From assembly GCA_026023565.1 (NCBI GenBank), contig JAPETS010000002.1, positions 248,001-312,000 on the forward strand: 64,000 nt of DNA, read 5' to 3'. Shown here one piece after another: positions 25,509-32,204 of the stretch. Each line of letters begins with the position of its first letter. The stretch's first letter is position 1. The notes under the pieces are model-generated. The model did no database searches, was not told the origin of the DNA, and saw only the letters and a list, made by a program, of their open reading frames with translations. The position numbers and the translations under genes are program-made. The stretch is from Cirrosporium novae-zelandiae. Its lineage: Eukaryota.

Positions 25509-26603
25509 CTATGGGGCGCAGGAATAAATCACACCAGGTACCACCTTCACCATCGCACTTGCGGTTTTTTGTTTGACCATAGTACTAGCAGCCCAGGTGT
25601 CTACCCGTGTTGAAGGGGATACACGTTGGTCTTGGGAGCACCATATCACCTGCGTTGGCTCTCCGATCCATTTTACTATATCAGTTGCAAACTCGGCGGT
25701 AGACCCGCGGTATCTTTGACCGTTTAAATTCCCATGACCTGCAATGCCGATGATTGCAAGATCCGGCTTAGGTTTCAAGCTCCGAAGGATACTTTCGTAT
25801 CCTCCTAAACTGCTCATCCAGAGAATAACACGATCTGCTAGAATAAAATTATACATCATTTGCCCACCACTGGAAGTAGAGTGTTTATTTTTACCATCTT
25901 CACGGAATGCGAGTGACTCTTTGGTATCCCAATACGGGCGGTTGGCGTTCCCGCGCAGTTCAATCATTGCTAGCGAGCGAGCATAGACTGAAAGACCATG
26001 ATCGTACGTTTTCATGGTAGATGTAGGGTTAGGAAGACCATAGTCATGTCTTGGGTGTTCAAAGCAATGCAAAGAAGGCCACACTTCGACAAAAAGTGGA
26101 GCAGTTGAGGGATCTAGCGTGAATTCTGGCCAACCCAAACCTTCTCGCTGGGCTTTCGTATATAGGGGAACTCTTTCGCCACCTGTAACCTGCACTAATT
26201 TTTTTGGGGAAACGCCTGCATTTATCATGAGTCGAATAGCTTCTGGGTTGGCAATTATCGTTGCCCCGAATTTTTTTGCCAGCTGGTCTGCCCCTGGGAG
26301 ACTATCACTAGTAAGCTTGATGTTCTTCACACACAAAATTTAGGGGTATGTCACTGGTCGAGAAGGGCATTACTGATGCAAATATAATCGCATTTATCGA
26401 CTTGGTCAAGATATAAAGCAGTATGCAAATTCGAAGGTCGATTAAGCAATGAGTCTAAAAATATAGTGATTCCACGAAGCGTGAGTCGGTATGTCGACCC
26501 CCCTATCTCACAGTCAGTTAGAGGATCCCACAAGGTCTAGTTAGCACTCACCAAACCACTCTATCGTACTAGAAGTATTAGCTCGTCTTATTTCGAATTC
26601 CAT
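25509..26603 (-). CDS. Metallo-beta-lactamase-fold protein with a degenerate metal-binding motif; 3 exons, introns 26503-26551 and 26302-26354
   Basis: Spliced: MEFEIRRANTSSTIEWFGGSTYRLTLRGITIFLDSLLNRP...CDYICISNALLDHLPGADQLAKKFGATIIANPEA...GGERVPL...WPSLHC. This is the MBL-fold pattern, but HxHxDH reads NxLxDH. The second donor (GTGACA) is weak. Confidence 0.7.
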
Positions 26604-27414: not shown

Positions 27415-27515
27415 TGCATTAGCCGTGAATCGAACACGGAGCTCGTCGAACTTTCTCATTCATTCATTCTCAGAATCAATGGCAACGACGAATTTTACCA
27501 TTAAACCACTAATGC
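27415..27515 (-). tRNA. tRNA-Gly(GCC) with a 30-nt canonical intron (27450-27479)
   Basis: Minus strand GCATTAGTGGTTTAATGGTAAAATTCGTCGTTGCCA[intron]TCGACGAGCTCCGTGTTCGATTCACGGCTAATGCA. Acceptor GCATTAG/CTAATGC, anticodon stem CGTCG/CGACG, T-arm CCGTG-TTCGATT-CACGG. Confidence 0.93.
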
Positions 27516-27754: not shown

Positions 27755-27911
27755 GCTCCTATAGCTCAGTTGGTAGAGCGCAGCACTAGTACCAAGCCTA
27801 TCCAAGCAAAAAGCAAAATGCTGAGGTCTTCAGGTAAGCAAAAGAAAAAGAAAATATACAAGTTAGCATATTCTAATGAGATATTCATTAGTTCAAATCT
27901 GAATGGGAGCA
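27755..27911 (+). tRNA. tRNA-Thr(AGT) with two introns: canonical 37/38 intron (27792-27817) and a spliceosomal-type GT-AG intron in the T-arm (27834-27891)
   Basis: Exons 27755-27791, 27818-27833 and 27892-27911 give GCTCCTATAGCTCAGTTGGTAGAGCGCAGCACTAGTA-ATGCTGAGGTCTTCAG-TTCAAATCTGAATGGGAGCA (73 nt). Acceptor GCTCCTA/TGGGAGC, D-stem GCTC/GAGC, anticodon stem CAGCA/TGCTG, T-stem TTCAG/CTGAA, T-loop TTCAAAT. Confidence 0.88.
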
Positions 27912-27938
27912 AAAAAATATTCACGATTGTGATTTATC

Positions 27939-27945
27939 TTTTTTT
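27939..27945 (+). terminator. Pol III oligo(dT) terminator downstream of tRNA-Thr
   Basis: T7 run about 28 nt after the discriminator base. It is the first run of four or more T after the tRNA start. Confidence 0.6.
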
Positions 27946-28196
27946 GGGGGAGAGCTCGCTTAGTTGAGTTTAGCCCTAATTTGTTTGGGAAGTTGTGGGT
28001 TAGGGCTAGTTAGTGAATAGGAGCTTCTTCTTTTTTCGTTTCTAGGGAGTTTGTTGGGTTTGTAGGGAAGTTTGTGAGATGGGCGAATAGATGATATAAT
28101 TATTGAATCATTTCCTACCTCGCATACACCCACCCCCAAATCTTCCGACTCCCATCACACCTTCAACAGAAGAGGGCCTCGCACCTCTTTCGATCA

Positions 28197-28559: not shown

Positions 28560-31500
28560 TTAACCCCTGGCAACCCCTTCCACGAATCCTAGTGCCTCTT
28601 CCATGCTGACCCTCTCAACCTTGCTGGCCTTCCCCGCATAAACGACCCCGTAGCACTTCCCGGCACTCCTTACCATCTCCGGTCTAAATGTCGTGCAGAT
28701 AAACTGGCTCTTCTGCCCGCTCGCATCTCCCTTCTCCGAAATCTCGGCTAACAGATCTGCCACCGCTTGGCGGTACTGCGAGTCAAGAGCGGCATCGATT
28801 TCATCAAAGAGATAAAAGGGCGCGGGATCGCAAGCTTGGATGCTGAAGATGAGGGTTAGAGCACAGAGAGACTTTTGTCCGCCGGAGAGGGCCTGGATGC
28901 GGAGGGGAGCAGAGGTAGGGGAAAAGGAAACGGAGATGCCGATGCCAATGTAGTTGTCCACCGAACTTTTATTGCCTTCTTCGTCATCGGATTCCTCTTC
29001 TCCCGCAGCAGCCGCGCGGTCTTTGTCGATTTTCCTTTGAATGACAAGACGCCCAGAACCCTGGGGTACCAGGCGTTGGAATATTCGGCTGAATTCTTTA
29101 GAGACTTGCTTGAAAGTTCGTTCGATAGCTTCGTCTTTTCTTTGATCTAGCACGCTGATAAGCTCTCTGATGCTGTCTTGACTTTTATCCAGCTCCTCTC
29201 TCCTTCCCATAAGCGTCTCACGCTGCCGAGTGAAATTTTGATATTGTTCAAACGCCTTCTTGTTGACAGACCCATACTTTTTCAGAGCAGCGCTGACAGC
29301 ATGAAGGCGCTTGACAAGGGTATTGGAAGATGCGCTCGTGAACCTTGTGAATGCTTCTTCAGGAAGGACACCAAGAGCACGAATGTTGGCGGCACAAGTG
29401 GCTGCTGACGCTGCGAGAACGGCACGTTTTTGTGTTGACTTCTCAAGTAATCTTTGATGGCGCGATATTTGCTTGGCGAGGTTTTCTTGACCAGTGCGGA
29501 GATTGGAGATTTGGGATTCGAGGTCGTGAACTTGGGTAATTTGTGACTCAATTTGGGCTGTGAGATCTGAGAGCTTCGATTCAGTGGTGTTAAGGCTTTT
29601 GGTAAGACGCTTGAGAAGACGTTCTGCGTCACGGACCGATGTTCGAGAGGAAGTAGGGCTGGTTGGATCATCATCATCGGCACCACCATCTTCTTCCGCA
29701 GTAGTAAGAGCCTCAAGGCGAGGTTGCAAGTTTTCACGAAGTTCGACCTCCAGGACGGATTTCTGGGTTTCGAGATCGGAACGCGTCGAGGAAATGGTCG
29801 TATATTGTCGGCGAAGGTCTTGCACTGCGACACTGAGACTTTCAAGTTGGGCTTCTTCCTCATTGCTGAGGGCTTTCTTGAAAGAGGTAGATAGTTCTTC
29901 TTCGTGTGCATTCTGCTGCTCACTCAAAGCACGAAGGTTAGAGTCGATATTCGCAAGAGCGCGATGTTTGGCTTCCAATGCATCCTCTTTCGTATGTAGG
30001 GCATCGACCTTGGCTTTGAGCTCCTGCCGAAGAGGGAGATAACTGTTTTGGATTTGCTGACGTTTTTGCTCAAGTTTTTGAAGCTCTCCAACTGCGCGAG
30101 TAATTTCTTGATCCATGCGTTCCAAACTGCGACGGAGTTCAATACTACGGTTTCTAAGCGATTCGTATTCTTCGCGCCATTTGGAAACGTTACGAACGCC
30201 TTCTAGACGGGACGACCGAGGATCGTGGAAACCTCCCGTCAAGGCACCCTTCTTGTCTGATCGGTCGCCATCTGGAGTAATGGCATTGACACCATGACTC
30301 CGTGCATAGGTTGAGCAGACAGATAGATTCGGACAGATGATGGTTTTGCCAAAGACTTGTTGGAAAGCCTTGTCATATTTGACATCATATTGAAGCTTTT
30401 CAATCATTGGGAGGGCATCACCTGCTTTTGGGAGGTCTTGAGGCCTAGGTCGTAGCCGGTTCAAAGGCATGAATGTGATACGACCGGCCTTTTCCTTTTG
30501 CAATATCTCAAGAACCTTAGTTGCAGTGTCGTCATTATCCACCACGTAGTGGAAAAGACTGTTCCCGGCAGTAACCTCCACGGCAATTCGGAACCTCTCA
30601 TGAACCTCCACAAGTTCAGCCAAAGTACCGTAAACACCTTCCATATTGTACCGTTGTTTAATTCGACGAACAGCCGCTAAACCTCGGCTGGTATTCTGGT
30701 CCATCATATGTGATAAGGCTCGGTCCGCTTTATCGAGTTCTTGTTGAGCGTTTGCTATAACAGAATCGAGTTTGGCATCCTCACGCCACAGCTCCTTCCG
30801 CTGGTCCATCAAACGATCACGCTCATCCTTGGCACTTTGTACTTGAGTATCAAGAGATTGCAATGTCTCCGTTCTGCTATCCAATTGAGCTCGAAGCTGC
30901 TGTATTTCGCCTTCTCTATCCGTTTTCTCCTTTTCCAGTTCGGTAATATCATCGGTTGTCTGCATTCTGTTGGCCCGAACTTTGGCCACTGATTCATAGG
31001 TATTGTCAATCTCTTGTCTCAGCCACCCGTCTCTTTCAGCTTTGTTCCGAAATCTTGAATTACGGCCTTGTTTGGCATATAATCGCTGGCGAGTCGTCTC
31101 AGCCTCATCTAATTGAGCCTTGACAGATTCCTCCTCCTCTTTTCTGGCTTGAAATTGCGGAAGAATCTGGGCAAGCTCTGCCTCCCTCTGTTGTATCAAG
31201 TTCTGAACATTCTCAAGTTCCTGGTCACGTTGCACCTTCTTTTGATCTGCGGCTGATTGACCCTCTCGCAAGTTGTTCAACTGAAGCTCGGCTTTGGCTT
31301 TGGCTCGCGCATTCTCTTTTCGTTCGTCCTCAAGCTGGGCCTTGTCAACTTTGAGGAATTCCATTTGCTGTTTAAGCTCGGAGATTTCTCCATTGATCCG
31401 GGCCATTTCTTTTTCATTCTGAATGAACTGGTCTCGATTATCGTCAGTGTCGTCCACACCAGTCTGGCGCTTTTCATCCAATTCATCTAGAGCCCTTTGA

Positions 31501-32204
31501 ATCTCTTCTTGTTCCCGAACATAAATAGTGTATTCTAAGCATCTCCGTTCTCGATCTTTCTCTTGATAGGTCCTAAGCTCATCTTTCTCTTCTTCTAGTT
31601 CACCGAGACGTTCATTAATATAGGCCAAGAGTTCATCAATCTTTGCTCGTTTATTTGAAGTATCTCCCATAATTTTCAAACTTTCGGCCCGTCTAGCTTC
31701 ATAGACTTGAGTCCCTGCTACTTCCTTAAGTAGATTGAGGCGTTCCGTATCTTTCATGTTCGTCAATGTCGTAACACGTCCTTGCGGGACTATGTAGTAA
31801 GGATTCGATCGGGAAAAGCCTGCAGATTCTAGTAGATTCATTACATCGGCTTTGGTCGCATTTTTGCGATCCAAGGAGTATTCATCTTTCTTGAGACCAA
31901 TGGTTCGTCGTAGCACCACCTCGTCTCTGCCGGTCGGAAAACGCTCGTCTGAATTATCGAATATGATCTCCACATAGGCTGACATGACAGCAGAACCGGA
32001 TCCCTCGTGAAGTAAACCCTGTCTCTCTTCGCGGTTCATCTGGGTGTAGGCATCGCTGAGAACGAAACGAATGGCGGCGAAGAAATTACTCTTCCCAGAA
32101 CCGTTGCGTCCGACAATTACATTATTTTGGGGGGAAAAGGGCTCGATGACTGTTTGGTCTTTGTAGGACTTGAAGCCCTGAATGATGATTTGTTTGATAT
32201 ACAT
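28560..32204 (-). CDS. SMC3: Cohesin subunit SMC3 (SudA/Psm3), intronless
   Basis: MYIKQIIIQGFKSYKDQT, Walker A GRNGSGKSN, acetylation patch RRTIGLKKDEY, hinge GVYGTLAEL, signature LSGGQKS, Walker B FYLFDEIDAALD; 1214 aa. Confidence 0.98.
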   Translation of the reverse strand: MYIKQIIIQGFKSYKDQTVIEPFSPQNNVIVGRNGSGKSNFFAAIRFVLSDAYTQMNREERQGLLHEGSGSAVMSAYVEIIFDNSDERFPTGRDEVVLRRTIGLKKDEYSLDRKNATKADVMNLLESAGFSRSNPYYIVPQGRVTTLTNMKDTERLNLLKEVAGTQVYEARRAESLKIMGDTSNKRAKIDELLAYINERLGELEEEKDELRTYQEKDRERRCLEYTIYVREQEEIQRALDELDEKRQTGVDDTDDNRDQFIQNEKEMARINGEISELKQQMEFLKVDKAQLEDERKENARAKAKAELQLNNLREGQSAADQKKVQRDQELENVQNLIQQREAELAQILPQFQARKEEEESVKAQLDEAETTRQRLYAKQGRNSRFRNKAERDGWLRQEIDNTYESVAKVRANRMQTTDDITELEKEKTDREGEIQQLRAQLDSRTETLQSLDTQVQSAKDERDRLMDQRKELWREDAKLDSVIANAQQELDKADRALSHMMDQNTSRGLAAVRRIKQRYNMEGVYGTLAELVEVHERFRIAVEVTAGNSLFHYVVDNDDTATKVLEILQKEKAGRITFMPLNRLRPRPQDLPKAGDALPMIEKLQYDVKYDKAFQQVFGKTIICPNLSVCSTYARSHGVNAITPDGDRSDKKGALTGGFHDPRSSRLEGVRNVSKWREEYESLRNRSIELRRSLERMDQEITRAVGELQKLEQKRQQIQNSYLPLRQELKAKVDALHTKEDALEAKHRALANIDSNLRALSEQQNAHEEELSTSFKKALSNEEEAQLESLSVAVQDLRRQYTTISSTRSDLETQKSVLEVELRENLQPRLEALTTAEEDGGADDDDPTSPTSSRTSVRDAERLLKRLTKSLNTTESKLSDLTAQIESQITQVHDLESQISNLRTGQENLAKQISRHQRLLEKSTQKRAVLAASAATCAANIRALGVLPEEAFTRFTSASSNTLVKRLHAVSAALKKYGSVNKKAFEQYQNFTRQRETLMGRREELDKSQDSIRELISVLDQRKDEAIERTFKQVSKEFSRIFQRLVPQGSGRLVIQRKIDKDRAAAAGEEESDDEEGNKSSVDNYIGIGISVSFSPTSAPLRIQALSGGQKSLCALTLIFSIQACDPAPFYLFDEIDAALDSQYRQAVADLLAEISEKGDASGQKSQFICTTFRPEMVRSAGKCYGVVYAGKASKVERVSMEEALGFVEGVARG

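Follow-up and report, generated by a model that had tools for sequence, protein, structure and literature searches.

Spliceosomal introns are generally placed in mRNAs and other transcripts of RNA polymerase II (Pol II), as described in PMC12530127. The introns of tRNA genes are, by the accounts in PMC10485636 and PMC10946435, removed by a protein endonuclease, in fungi at position 37/38 only. Fungal non-coding genes with spliceosomal introns have been described as well. [quoted passage not shown] Introns of the mRNA type in the U6 genes of S. pombe and other fungi were reported by Tani and Ohshima in 1989 and 1991 and by Canzler et al. in 2016 (via PMC5855946), and reverse splicing has been proposed as their origin (PMC5855946). 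Spliceosomal introns are also described from the rRNA genes of ascomycetes, often lichen-forming ones (Bhattacharya et al. 2000, via PMC5855946 and PMC6652019), and from the U1, U2 and U5 snRNA genes of Rhodotorula hasegawae (Takahashi et al. 1993, 1996, via PMC5855946). Archaea and the red alga Cyanidioschyzon merolae have non-canonical introns in their tRNA genes (PMC4033280, PMC3978253, PMC10485636). For a spliceosomal intron in a tRNA gene, we found no description in the literature searched, which had most subscription journals outside its coverage. The word "spliceosome" is absent from a 2014 review of tRNA gene diversity (PMC4033280).

Here we describe a tRNA-Thr(AGT) gene of Cirrosporium novae-zelandiae that carries a 58-nt insert in its T-arm. 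It lies in a stretch of 64,000 nt (positions 248,001 to 312,000 of contig JAPETS010000002.1, assembly GCA_026023565.1), which we call the window and within which all positions are counted. We consider it likely that this insert represents a spliceosomal intron of the U2 type (GT-AG) within a nuclear tRNA-Thr(AGU) gene, the host being a filamentous ascomycete (Pezizomycotina), and that it belongs to a class recurring in fungal-looking Thr-AGT genes. The first-pass annotation had placed the insert between G53 and T54, with GTAAGC at 27834, TTCTAAT at 27871-27877 and TAG ending at 27891, in a gene that also has an ordinary 26-nt intron at 37/38. All of these elements stand where it had put them, the insert to the base (Table 1).

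The introns of fungal U6 genes offer the closest parallel. Like them, the insert is short, has GT-AG ends together with a canonical donor, branch and acceptor, and interrupts the gene of a small, structured non-coding RNA, in the case of U6 one made by Pol III. The U6 introns, too, are described as unrelated in sequence between species and as occupying several positions in one gene. Unlike U6, the host is a tRNA, whose later processing depends on the restored fold. Since a tRNA is not a component of the spliceosome, closeness to the spliceosomal active site cannot explain the insertion, and the gene also has a second intron of another type to be removed. Splicing has been shown for the U6 RNA of S. 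pombe; for the tRNA in the window it is a prediction. The introns of ascomycete rDNA resemble the insert in being of the spliceosomal type, in a non-coding gene of Pezizomycotina that is not made by Pol II, as described in the sources cited above, but they sit in Pol I genes and not in a tRNA gene. The SMC3/SudA homologue encoded next to the tRNA gene is closest to those of Eurotiomycetes and lichen-forming fungi, a parallel to the hosts of the rDNA introns; because its identity to them is at most about 69%, the lineage is poorly sampled. The snRNA introns of R. hasegawae likewise have GT-AG ends and lie in conserved parts of small non-coding fungal genes; the U1, U2 and U5 genes, as they are described, are transcribed by Pol II and belong to the splicing machine, in contrast to a tRNA. 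The tRNA introns described from archaea and C. merolae share a location outside 37/38, the T-arm included, the occurrence of several in one gene and a tendency to be overlooked by standard finders. They differ in having a bulge-helix-bulge that is cut by a protein endonuclease, without GT, branch or AG signals. As proposed for fungal U6, the intron of the tRNA gene may have been gained by reverse splicing.

Table 1. Features of the tRNA-Thr(AGT) locus and its neighbours (positions in the window)
Feature	Position	Strand	Evidence
tRNA-Thr(AGT) gene, two introns, 157 nt, discriminator A at 27911	27755-27911	+	Rfam RF00005, 36.9 bits; ARAGORN after in-silico removal of both introns
Exon 1, tRNA positions 1-37: acceptor GCTCCTA, D-arm, anticodon stem CAGCA, loop CTAGTA, anticodon AGT	27755-27791	+	sequence
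A-box-like element TAGCTCAGTTGG, tRNA positions 8-19, in the D-arm of exon 1	within 27755-27791	+	sequence
26-nt intron at the canonical 37/38 site, endonuclease type, without GT..AG	27792-27817	+	sequence
Exon 2, tRNA positions 38-53: anticodon stem TGCTG, variable loop AGGTC, T-stem strand TTCAG	27818-27833	+	sequence
58-nt spliceosomal-type intron at G53/T54; A 29, T 15, G 9, C 5; longest T run 2	27834-27891	+	sequence
5' splice site GTAAGC, preceded by exon CAG	27834-27839	+	sequence
Branch-site-like TTCTAAT, putative branch A at 27876 (15 nt ahead of the intron's final base)	27871-27877	+	sequence
7-bp hairpin CTAATGA/TCATTAG between branch motif and 3' splice site, -4.7 kcal/mol	27873-27891	+	computed fold
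3' splice site TAG	27889-27891	+	sequence
AG of TAG in the place of A52-G53 before TTCAAATCTG, giving a contiguous B-box-like AG+TTCAAATCTG	27889-27891 on	+	sequence
Exon 3, tRNA positions 54-73: T-loop TTCAAAT, T-stem CTGAA, acceptor TGGGAGC, discriminator A	27892-27911	+	sequence
T7 run, Pol III terminator-like, beginning 27 nt past the gene	27939-27945	+	sequence
tRNA-Arg(TCT) with canonical intron, 240 nt from the Thr gene, head to head with it	27415-27515	-	ARAGORN/Rfam
SMC3/SudA homologue, a single uninterrupted frame of 1214 codons	28560-32204	-	protein comparison

The ends of the insert agree with U2-type splice sites at every element. CAG followed by GTAAGC (27831-27839) fits the 5' splice site consensus (GTRNGY after exon AG/G), TTCTAAT contains the branch consensus CTRAY and would place the branch A 15 nt before the end, and the terminal TAG (27889-27891) is a YAG. 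Of the 127,886 58-mers on both strands of the window, the insert alone combines a GTAAG start, a YAG end and a CTRAY 8-30 nt from the end. Among segments of 45-100 nt, a strict rule picked out 20 of 7,159,992 (2.8e-6) and a loose rule 48 (6.7e-6), counts that include the real mRNA introns of the window. The signals all fall at the sole boundaries that give a perfect cloverleaf, an expectation of about 3e-6 to 7e-6 per fixed segment, which the freedom of the cut to slide (see below) raises by a factor of three at most. A chance origin of the splice signals of the insert is excluded. The candidate mRNA introns of the window, predicted from sequence as joining open frames, are 49-104 nt long, begin with GTAAGT or GTAAGC and have CTAAY or CTGAC 9-20 nt from their ends. 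The insert, which the first reading of the sequence had likened to them in size and signals, lies within their range in length, donor and branch distance.

Removal of the insert yields what appears to be a sound tRNA. ARAGORN called no tRNA in the unspliced locus. With only the T-arm insert taken out, it called one in which the remaining intron was ambiguous (placed at 33/34, with the anticodon read as caa), and with both introns removed it returned a tRNA-Thr(agt) of 73 nt with 7/7, 4/4, 5/5 and 5/5 stem pairs, a full cloverleaf with stems and invariant positions intact. This is the Thr-AGT call that had been anticipated for the sequence spliced in silico. Excision at GT..AG had also been said to restore the T-stem TTCAG/CTGAA and the loop TTCAAAT, and it does so with one correction: because AG both precedes and ends the insert, the cut can slide by 1 or 2 nt and leave the same product. 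Among these slidable cuts, only the one at 53/54 yields GT..AG. The Rfam tRNA model detects the gene even unspliced, at 36.9 bits against a gathering score of 29, in an alignment that takes the insert as an insertion in the variable region and its final ATTAG as a substitute strand of the T-stem. The prediction that scanners would overlook the gene thus held for ARAGORN, which found nothing in the raw locus, and failed for Infernal with Rfam. Minimum-energy folding gave the cloverleaf for neither the precursor nor the mature sequence.

The surroundings of the gene and the reads of the organism itself bear on whether the insert is a mobile or repeated sequence. Depth over 27812-28000 was 352.4 in contigs assembled from the organism's reads (likeness of at least 80%), equal to that of the flanks, and none of these contigs held an insert-free joint across 27834-27891. 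The insert is therefore not a dispersed repeat of high similarity, and there is no insert-free allele in these reads. A match to such a repeat had been named beforehand as an observation that would make the gene a disrupted pseudogene; the insert proved to be single-copy instead, and the same equality of depth at this likeness disposes of an introner-like element. One read-derived contig spans 27763-28000 with zero differences and at single-copy depth. The k-mer depth of exon 1 was 1539-2173 against 352, or 4-6 times as high, and the 5' half is thus common to other loci of the genome. These loci may be further Thr-AGT copies, a hint only, as the D-arm is common to many tRNAs. Intact Thr-AGT copies may accordingly exist, and the copy in the window could be dispensable.

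Two other sources of the insert were considered and set aside. An origin by duplication of adjacent gene parts finds no echo in the flanks, since 193 and 192 of 500 shuffles matched the scores of the left and right flank, respectively; the lack of significant likeness to its own flanks speaks against a local duplication. Self-splicing introns of group I and group II have a conserved ribozyme structure and are usually longer than 200 nt. The insert has 58 nt, and an Rfam search of the window at E<=0.1 returned tRNA only. In another organism of the same study, one contig matches tRNA positions 5-37 with two differences and then continues into a different 37/38 intron; for a third organism, the comparison yielded no contig at this gene. 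The tRNA-Arg(TCT) gene upstream also has relatives in the reads, two shorter contigs that are diverged copies with other introns.

We looked for relatives of the gene in a collection of metagenome contigs. A probe specific for the insert, which demanded the split T-arm, had no match there. A second probe, made from positions 8-37 of the window gene with the anticodon stem left open and blind to the T-arm, found at least 118 loci, a sample that is chosen by the window's own D-arm sequence. Among the window gene and the 118 matches listed, 70 genes are intronless, 30 have an intron at 37/38 only and 12 have a non-canonical 3' part; four are cut by contig ends and three are unclassified. The 12 are the window gene, L047 and, among the matches listed, ten loci with inserts of 51-62 nt outside 37/38 (L008, L017, L023, L029, L030, L034, L042, L046, L057 and L063). 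As L030, L057 and L063 are identical over 830 nt, these ten loci amount to eight distinct genes. The scan of relatives for split tRNAs that the first-pass annotation had proposed was thus productive, with eight distinct metagenome Thr-AGT genes interrupted outside 37/38 among the matches listed. In five of them (L008, L017, L029, L030 and L034, among the matches listed), the insert sits exactly at G53/T54. L046 has its insert at 46/47 plus a 10-nt intron at 37/38, L042 has one at 61/62, and L023 has two, at 6/7 and 63/64. We left L047, L056, L083 and L086 out of the intron counts, as well as L039, L069, L084 and L118, which are cut by contig ends; in L047, the acceptor strands are unpaired and no GT-AG solution exists.

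Some of these loci have features of their own. On the minus strand of L023 (300-500), a 56-nt intron in the acceptor stem at 6/7 reads GTAAGC..GTCTAAC..TAG, and a 53-nt intron in the T-stem at 63/64 begins with GCAAGT and is of the GC-AG type; from intron bases of this locus, ARAGORN wrongly calls a 73-nt "tRNA". L028 (364-595) holds two Thr-AGT genes head to head, about 85 nt apart, with Rfam scores of 64.1 bits for one and 38.5 bits for the second. L083 has only the 5' half of a Thr-AGT gene, followed by sequence that is found downstream of the intact gene of L035. By its structure it is a true truncated pseudogene, as if the 3' half had been deleted between two short TTGCT repeats. Its break falls after the first bases of the 37/38 intron, and it makes a useful contrast to the interrupted genes. 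The 400-nt flanks of the metagenome loci showed no recognisable gene or convincing coding frame, and the style of the introns suggests that the interrupted loci are fungal. L010, L050, L085, L072, L095 and L102 belong to tightly packed clusters, in which one tRNA is followed by another after a few bases. These clusters are probably not fungal nuclear genes, so the loci, at least 118 in number, form a mixed sample.

Across the interrupted genes, the splice signals are the constant element. Ten introns could be compared, that of the window and nine among the matches listed, ranging in length from 51 to 62 nt. Nine of the ten start with GT and one with GC, and the donor GTAAGC is found in six, the window's and five of the nine metagenome introns listed. 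All ten end in AG, nine of them in YAG (L034, among the matches listed, ends in AAG), and CTAAY stands 10-17 nt from the end in nine, with TATTAAT in its place in L029, again among the matches listed. The 31 distinct 37/38 introns among the matches listed served as a control: none starts with GT, two end in AG and none does both. When the six introns at 53/54 (that of the window and five among the matches listed) were aligned, the only conserved columns were donor, branch and acceptor. Once spliced in silico, all nine genes, that of the window and eight among the matches listed, give a 73-nt tRNA-Thr(agt) in ARAGORN. In their spliced form, L029, L030 and L046 match the uninterrupted L028 and L064 base for base, as spliced L034 does the uninterrupted L078. 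Because the same mature sequence bears introns at 53/54 and at 46/47, several independent gains are indicated.

The comparison of L029 with L030 separates exon from intron most clearly. Their exons agree in 73 of 73 bases, whereas their introns of about 55 nt differ by 12 mismatches and eight gap openings and their flanks cannot be aligned. The introns of L008 and L034 are related yet diverged, and between their T-stems a G-C pair has changed to A-T, with one base on either side of the intron. L008 also has the T-loop TCCGAAT in place of TTCGAAT, and this copy may be decaying. Loss of the signals or decay of the exons in relatives had been named in advance as evidence against splicing; instead, the relatives have intact exons and retain GT or GC, branch and AG, at the same site and at four others. 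The pattern is that of a functional gene whose intron was inherited and is under constraint at its splice signals only. Gene conversion by intact copies could account for part of the exon identity. The uninterrupted gene nearest to that of the window, among the matches listed, differs from it at 8 of 73 positions. With no close relative of the window gene found, the conservation holds for the class and not for the window locus itself. By its sequence and by this evolutionary behaviour, the insert is very probably of the spliceosomal type; that it is really spliced, to yield a working tRNA, we judge probable.

The best-surviving alternative is that the gene is dead. On this view, one of several Thr-AGT copies received a spliceosomal intron, or DNA that shares its signals by accident; a tRNA could, for instance, have acquired the intron by reverse splicing, been reverse-transcribed and then recombined with the gene. 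Its Pol III transcript would stay unspliced, no tRNA would come from the locus, and the locus would be drifting. The 5' half shared with other loci would fit this account, as intact copies may meet the need for the tRNA. So would the T-stem of the window gene, TTCAG/CTGAA, which is AT-rich with two G-C pairs, and the perfect 7-bp hairpin within the final 19 nt of the insert (27834-27891), which covers branch and acceptor. The T-loop variant of L008 suggests that some copies do decay. In a 2026 preprint (10.64898/2026.09.26.754642), human Alu RNA made by Pol III is reported not to be spliced by the spliceosome; the U6 gene of S. pombe means that such an exclusion is not absolute in fungi. In the window gene, however, the stems and invariant positions are all intact. 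Other interrupted genes have exons identical to those of uninterrupted genes while related introns have diverged and flanks cannot be aligned, and the retention of splice signals in ten of ten introns (that of the window and nine among the matches listed) is not expected of dead copies. We therefore think it unlikely that the gene is dead.

The locus might also be a Pol II substrate, with the tRNA embedded in a longer non-coding transcript of that polymerase; splicing would be co-transcriptional, and RNase P and RNase Z would make their cuts afterwards. Efficient spliceosomal splicing normally goes with Pol II, which favours this idea. Against it, there is no evident plus-strand gene nearby: the pair of tRNA genes, arranged back to back, is flanked by protein genes at 25509-26336 and 28560-32204, both on the minus strand. 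The features of a Pol III gene, moreover, are kept in the window gene and in the listed interrupted relatives. We take AG+TTCAAATCTG to be B-box-like and TAGCTCAGTTGG to be A-box-like. As the terminal AG of every 53/54 intron mimics positions 52-53, the B-box-like element is contiguous in the DNA; at the other insertion sites, both boxes are nearly whole (among the matches listed). No T run in any of the ten introns (that of the window and nine among the matches listed) is longer than three, which shows no more than compatibility with Pol III, since most candidate mRNA introns likewise have no run above three. A run of at least four T follows 3-26 nt downstream in all eight listed metagenome genes with sequence there and 27 nt downstream in the window gene; uninterrupted genes have a T run within 40 nt in 89 of 97 cases (among the matches listed). 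Transcription of the interrupted genes by Pol III looks possible, and an origin of the transcript from Pol II seems decidedly doubtful to us.

A third idea counts the insert among the non-canonical endonuclease-type introns, recognised through a bulge-helix-bulge as in archaea or the red alga Cyanidioschyzon. Some eukaryotes are described as having non-canonical tRNA introns (PMC10485636, PMC3978253), but the four-subunit endonuclease of fungi and animals is described as acting on introns at 37/38 only (PMC10485636), where the 26-nt intron of the gene lies and the insert at 53/54 does not. Such an enzyme would have no need of GT, of CTAAY at 10-17 nt or of AG, yet these are the sole conserved columns in the alignment of the window's intron with the five others at 53/54 among the matches listed, and the canonical introns of the same gene family combine GT with AG in 0 of 31 cases (among the matches listed). 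A relaxed scan for the bulge-helix-bulge found it in none of the ten introns and likewise in none of the 31 canonical 37/38 introns (among the matches listed). We regard an endonuclease-type insert as highly improbable. Chance resemblance in a random insertion, or a misassembly, is negligible, given a combination of signals expected in some 3-7 per million fixed segments, a read-derived contig identical over 27763-28000 at single-copy depth, and an architecture that recurs in eight further distinct genes among the matches listed.

If the insert is a spliceosomal intron, the features of the locus suggest an order of processing. The gene would be transcribed as an ordinary tRNA gene, its boxes intact, with no terminating T run inside the intron and a T7 run after the gene. 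As the first step, the spliceosome would excise the intron, cutting between CAG and GTAAGC at one end and between TAG and TT at the other, with TTCTAAT as the branch site. The T-arm intron would have to leave first, because neither the T-stem TTCAG/CTGAA nor the T-loop nor the L-shape can form while it is present. RNase P, RNase Z and the tRNA splicing endonuclease, all of which read the folded tRNA body, would act afterwards. The fungal endonuclease would measure from the folded body, cut at 37/38 only and take out the 26-nt intron; being limited to that site, it could not remove the insert at 53/54.

The kind of intron proposed here, a spliceosomal intron in a non-coding RNA gene, is a known one; what would be new is the class of host, a tRNA, and the need for two splicing machines. 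We lean towards a wider reading, in which filamentous ascomycetes have a class of Thr-AGU tRNA genes whose Pol III transcripts need the spliceosome before they can fold. The introns of this class would have been gained repeatedly, at five or more sites, and long inherited, and the gene in the window would need first the spliceosome and then the tRNA endonuclease. To our knowledge, eukaryotic tRNA finders that allow for introns consider position 37/38 only. ARAGORN overlooked the window gene and seven of the eight related interrupted genes among the matches listed, so fungal annotations probably lack such genes, and the tRNA gene counts that finders of canonical introns give for fungi would be too low. 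If this reading is right, it would break the rule that a protein endonuclease alone removes the introns of nuclear tRNAs, and the tRNA supply of these fungi would be tied to the activity of the spliceosome. Transfer RNA would become a new class of spliceosome substrate and the second natural Pol III transcript to be spliced, after U6. For the question of how the spliceosome locates an RNA that lacks a cap and is highly structured, the genes would be a clean system. As the same 73-nt gene bears independent introns at five sites, they would be an equally clean system for the study of intron gain.
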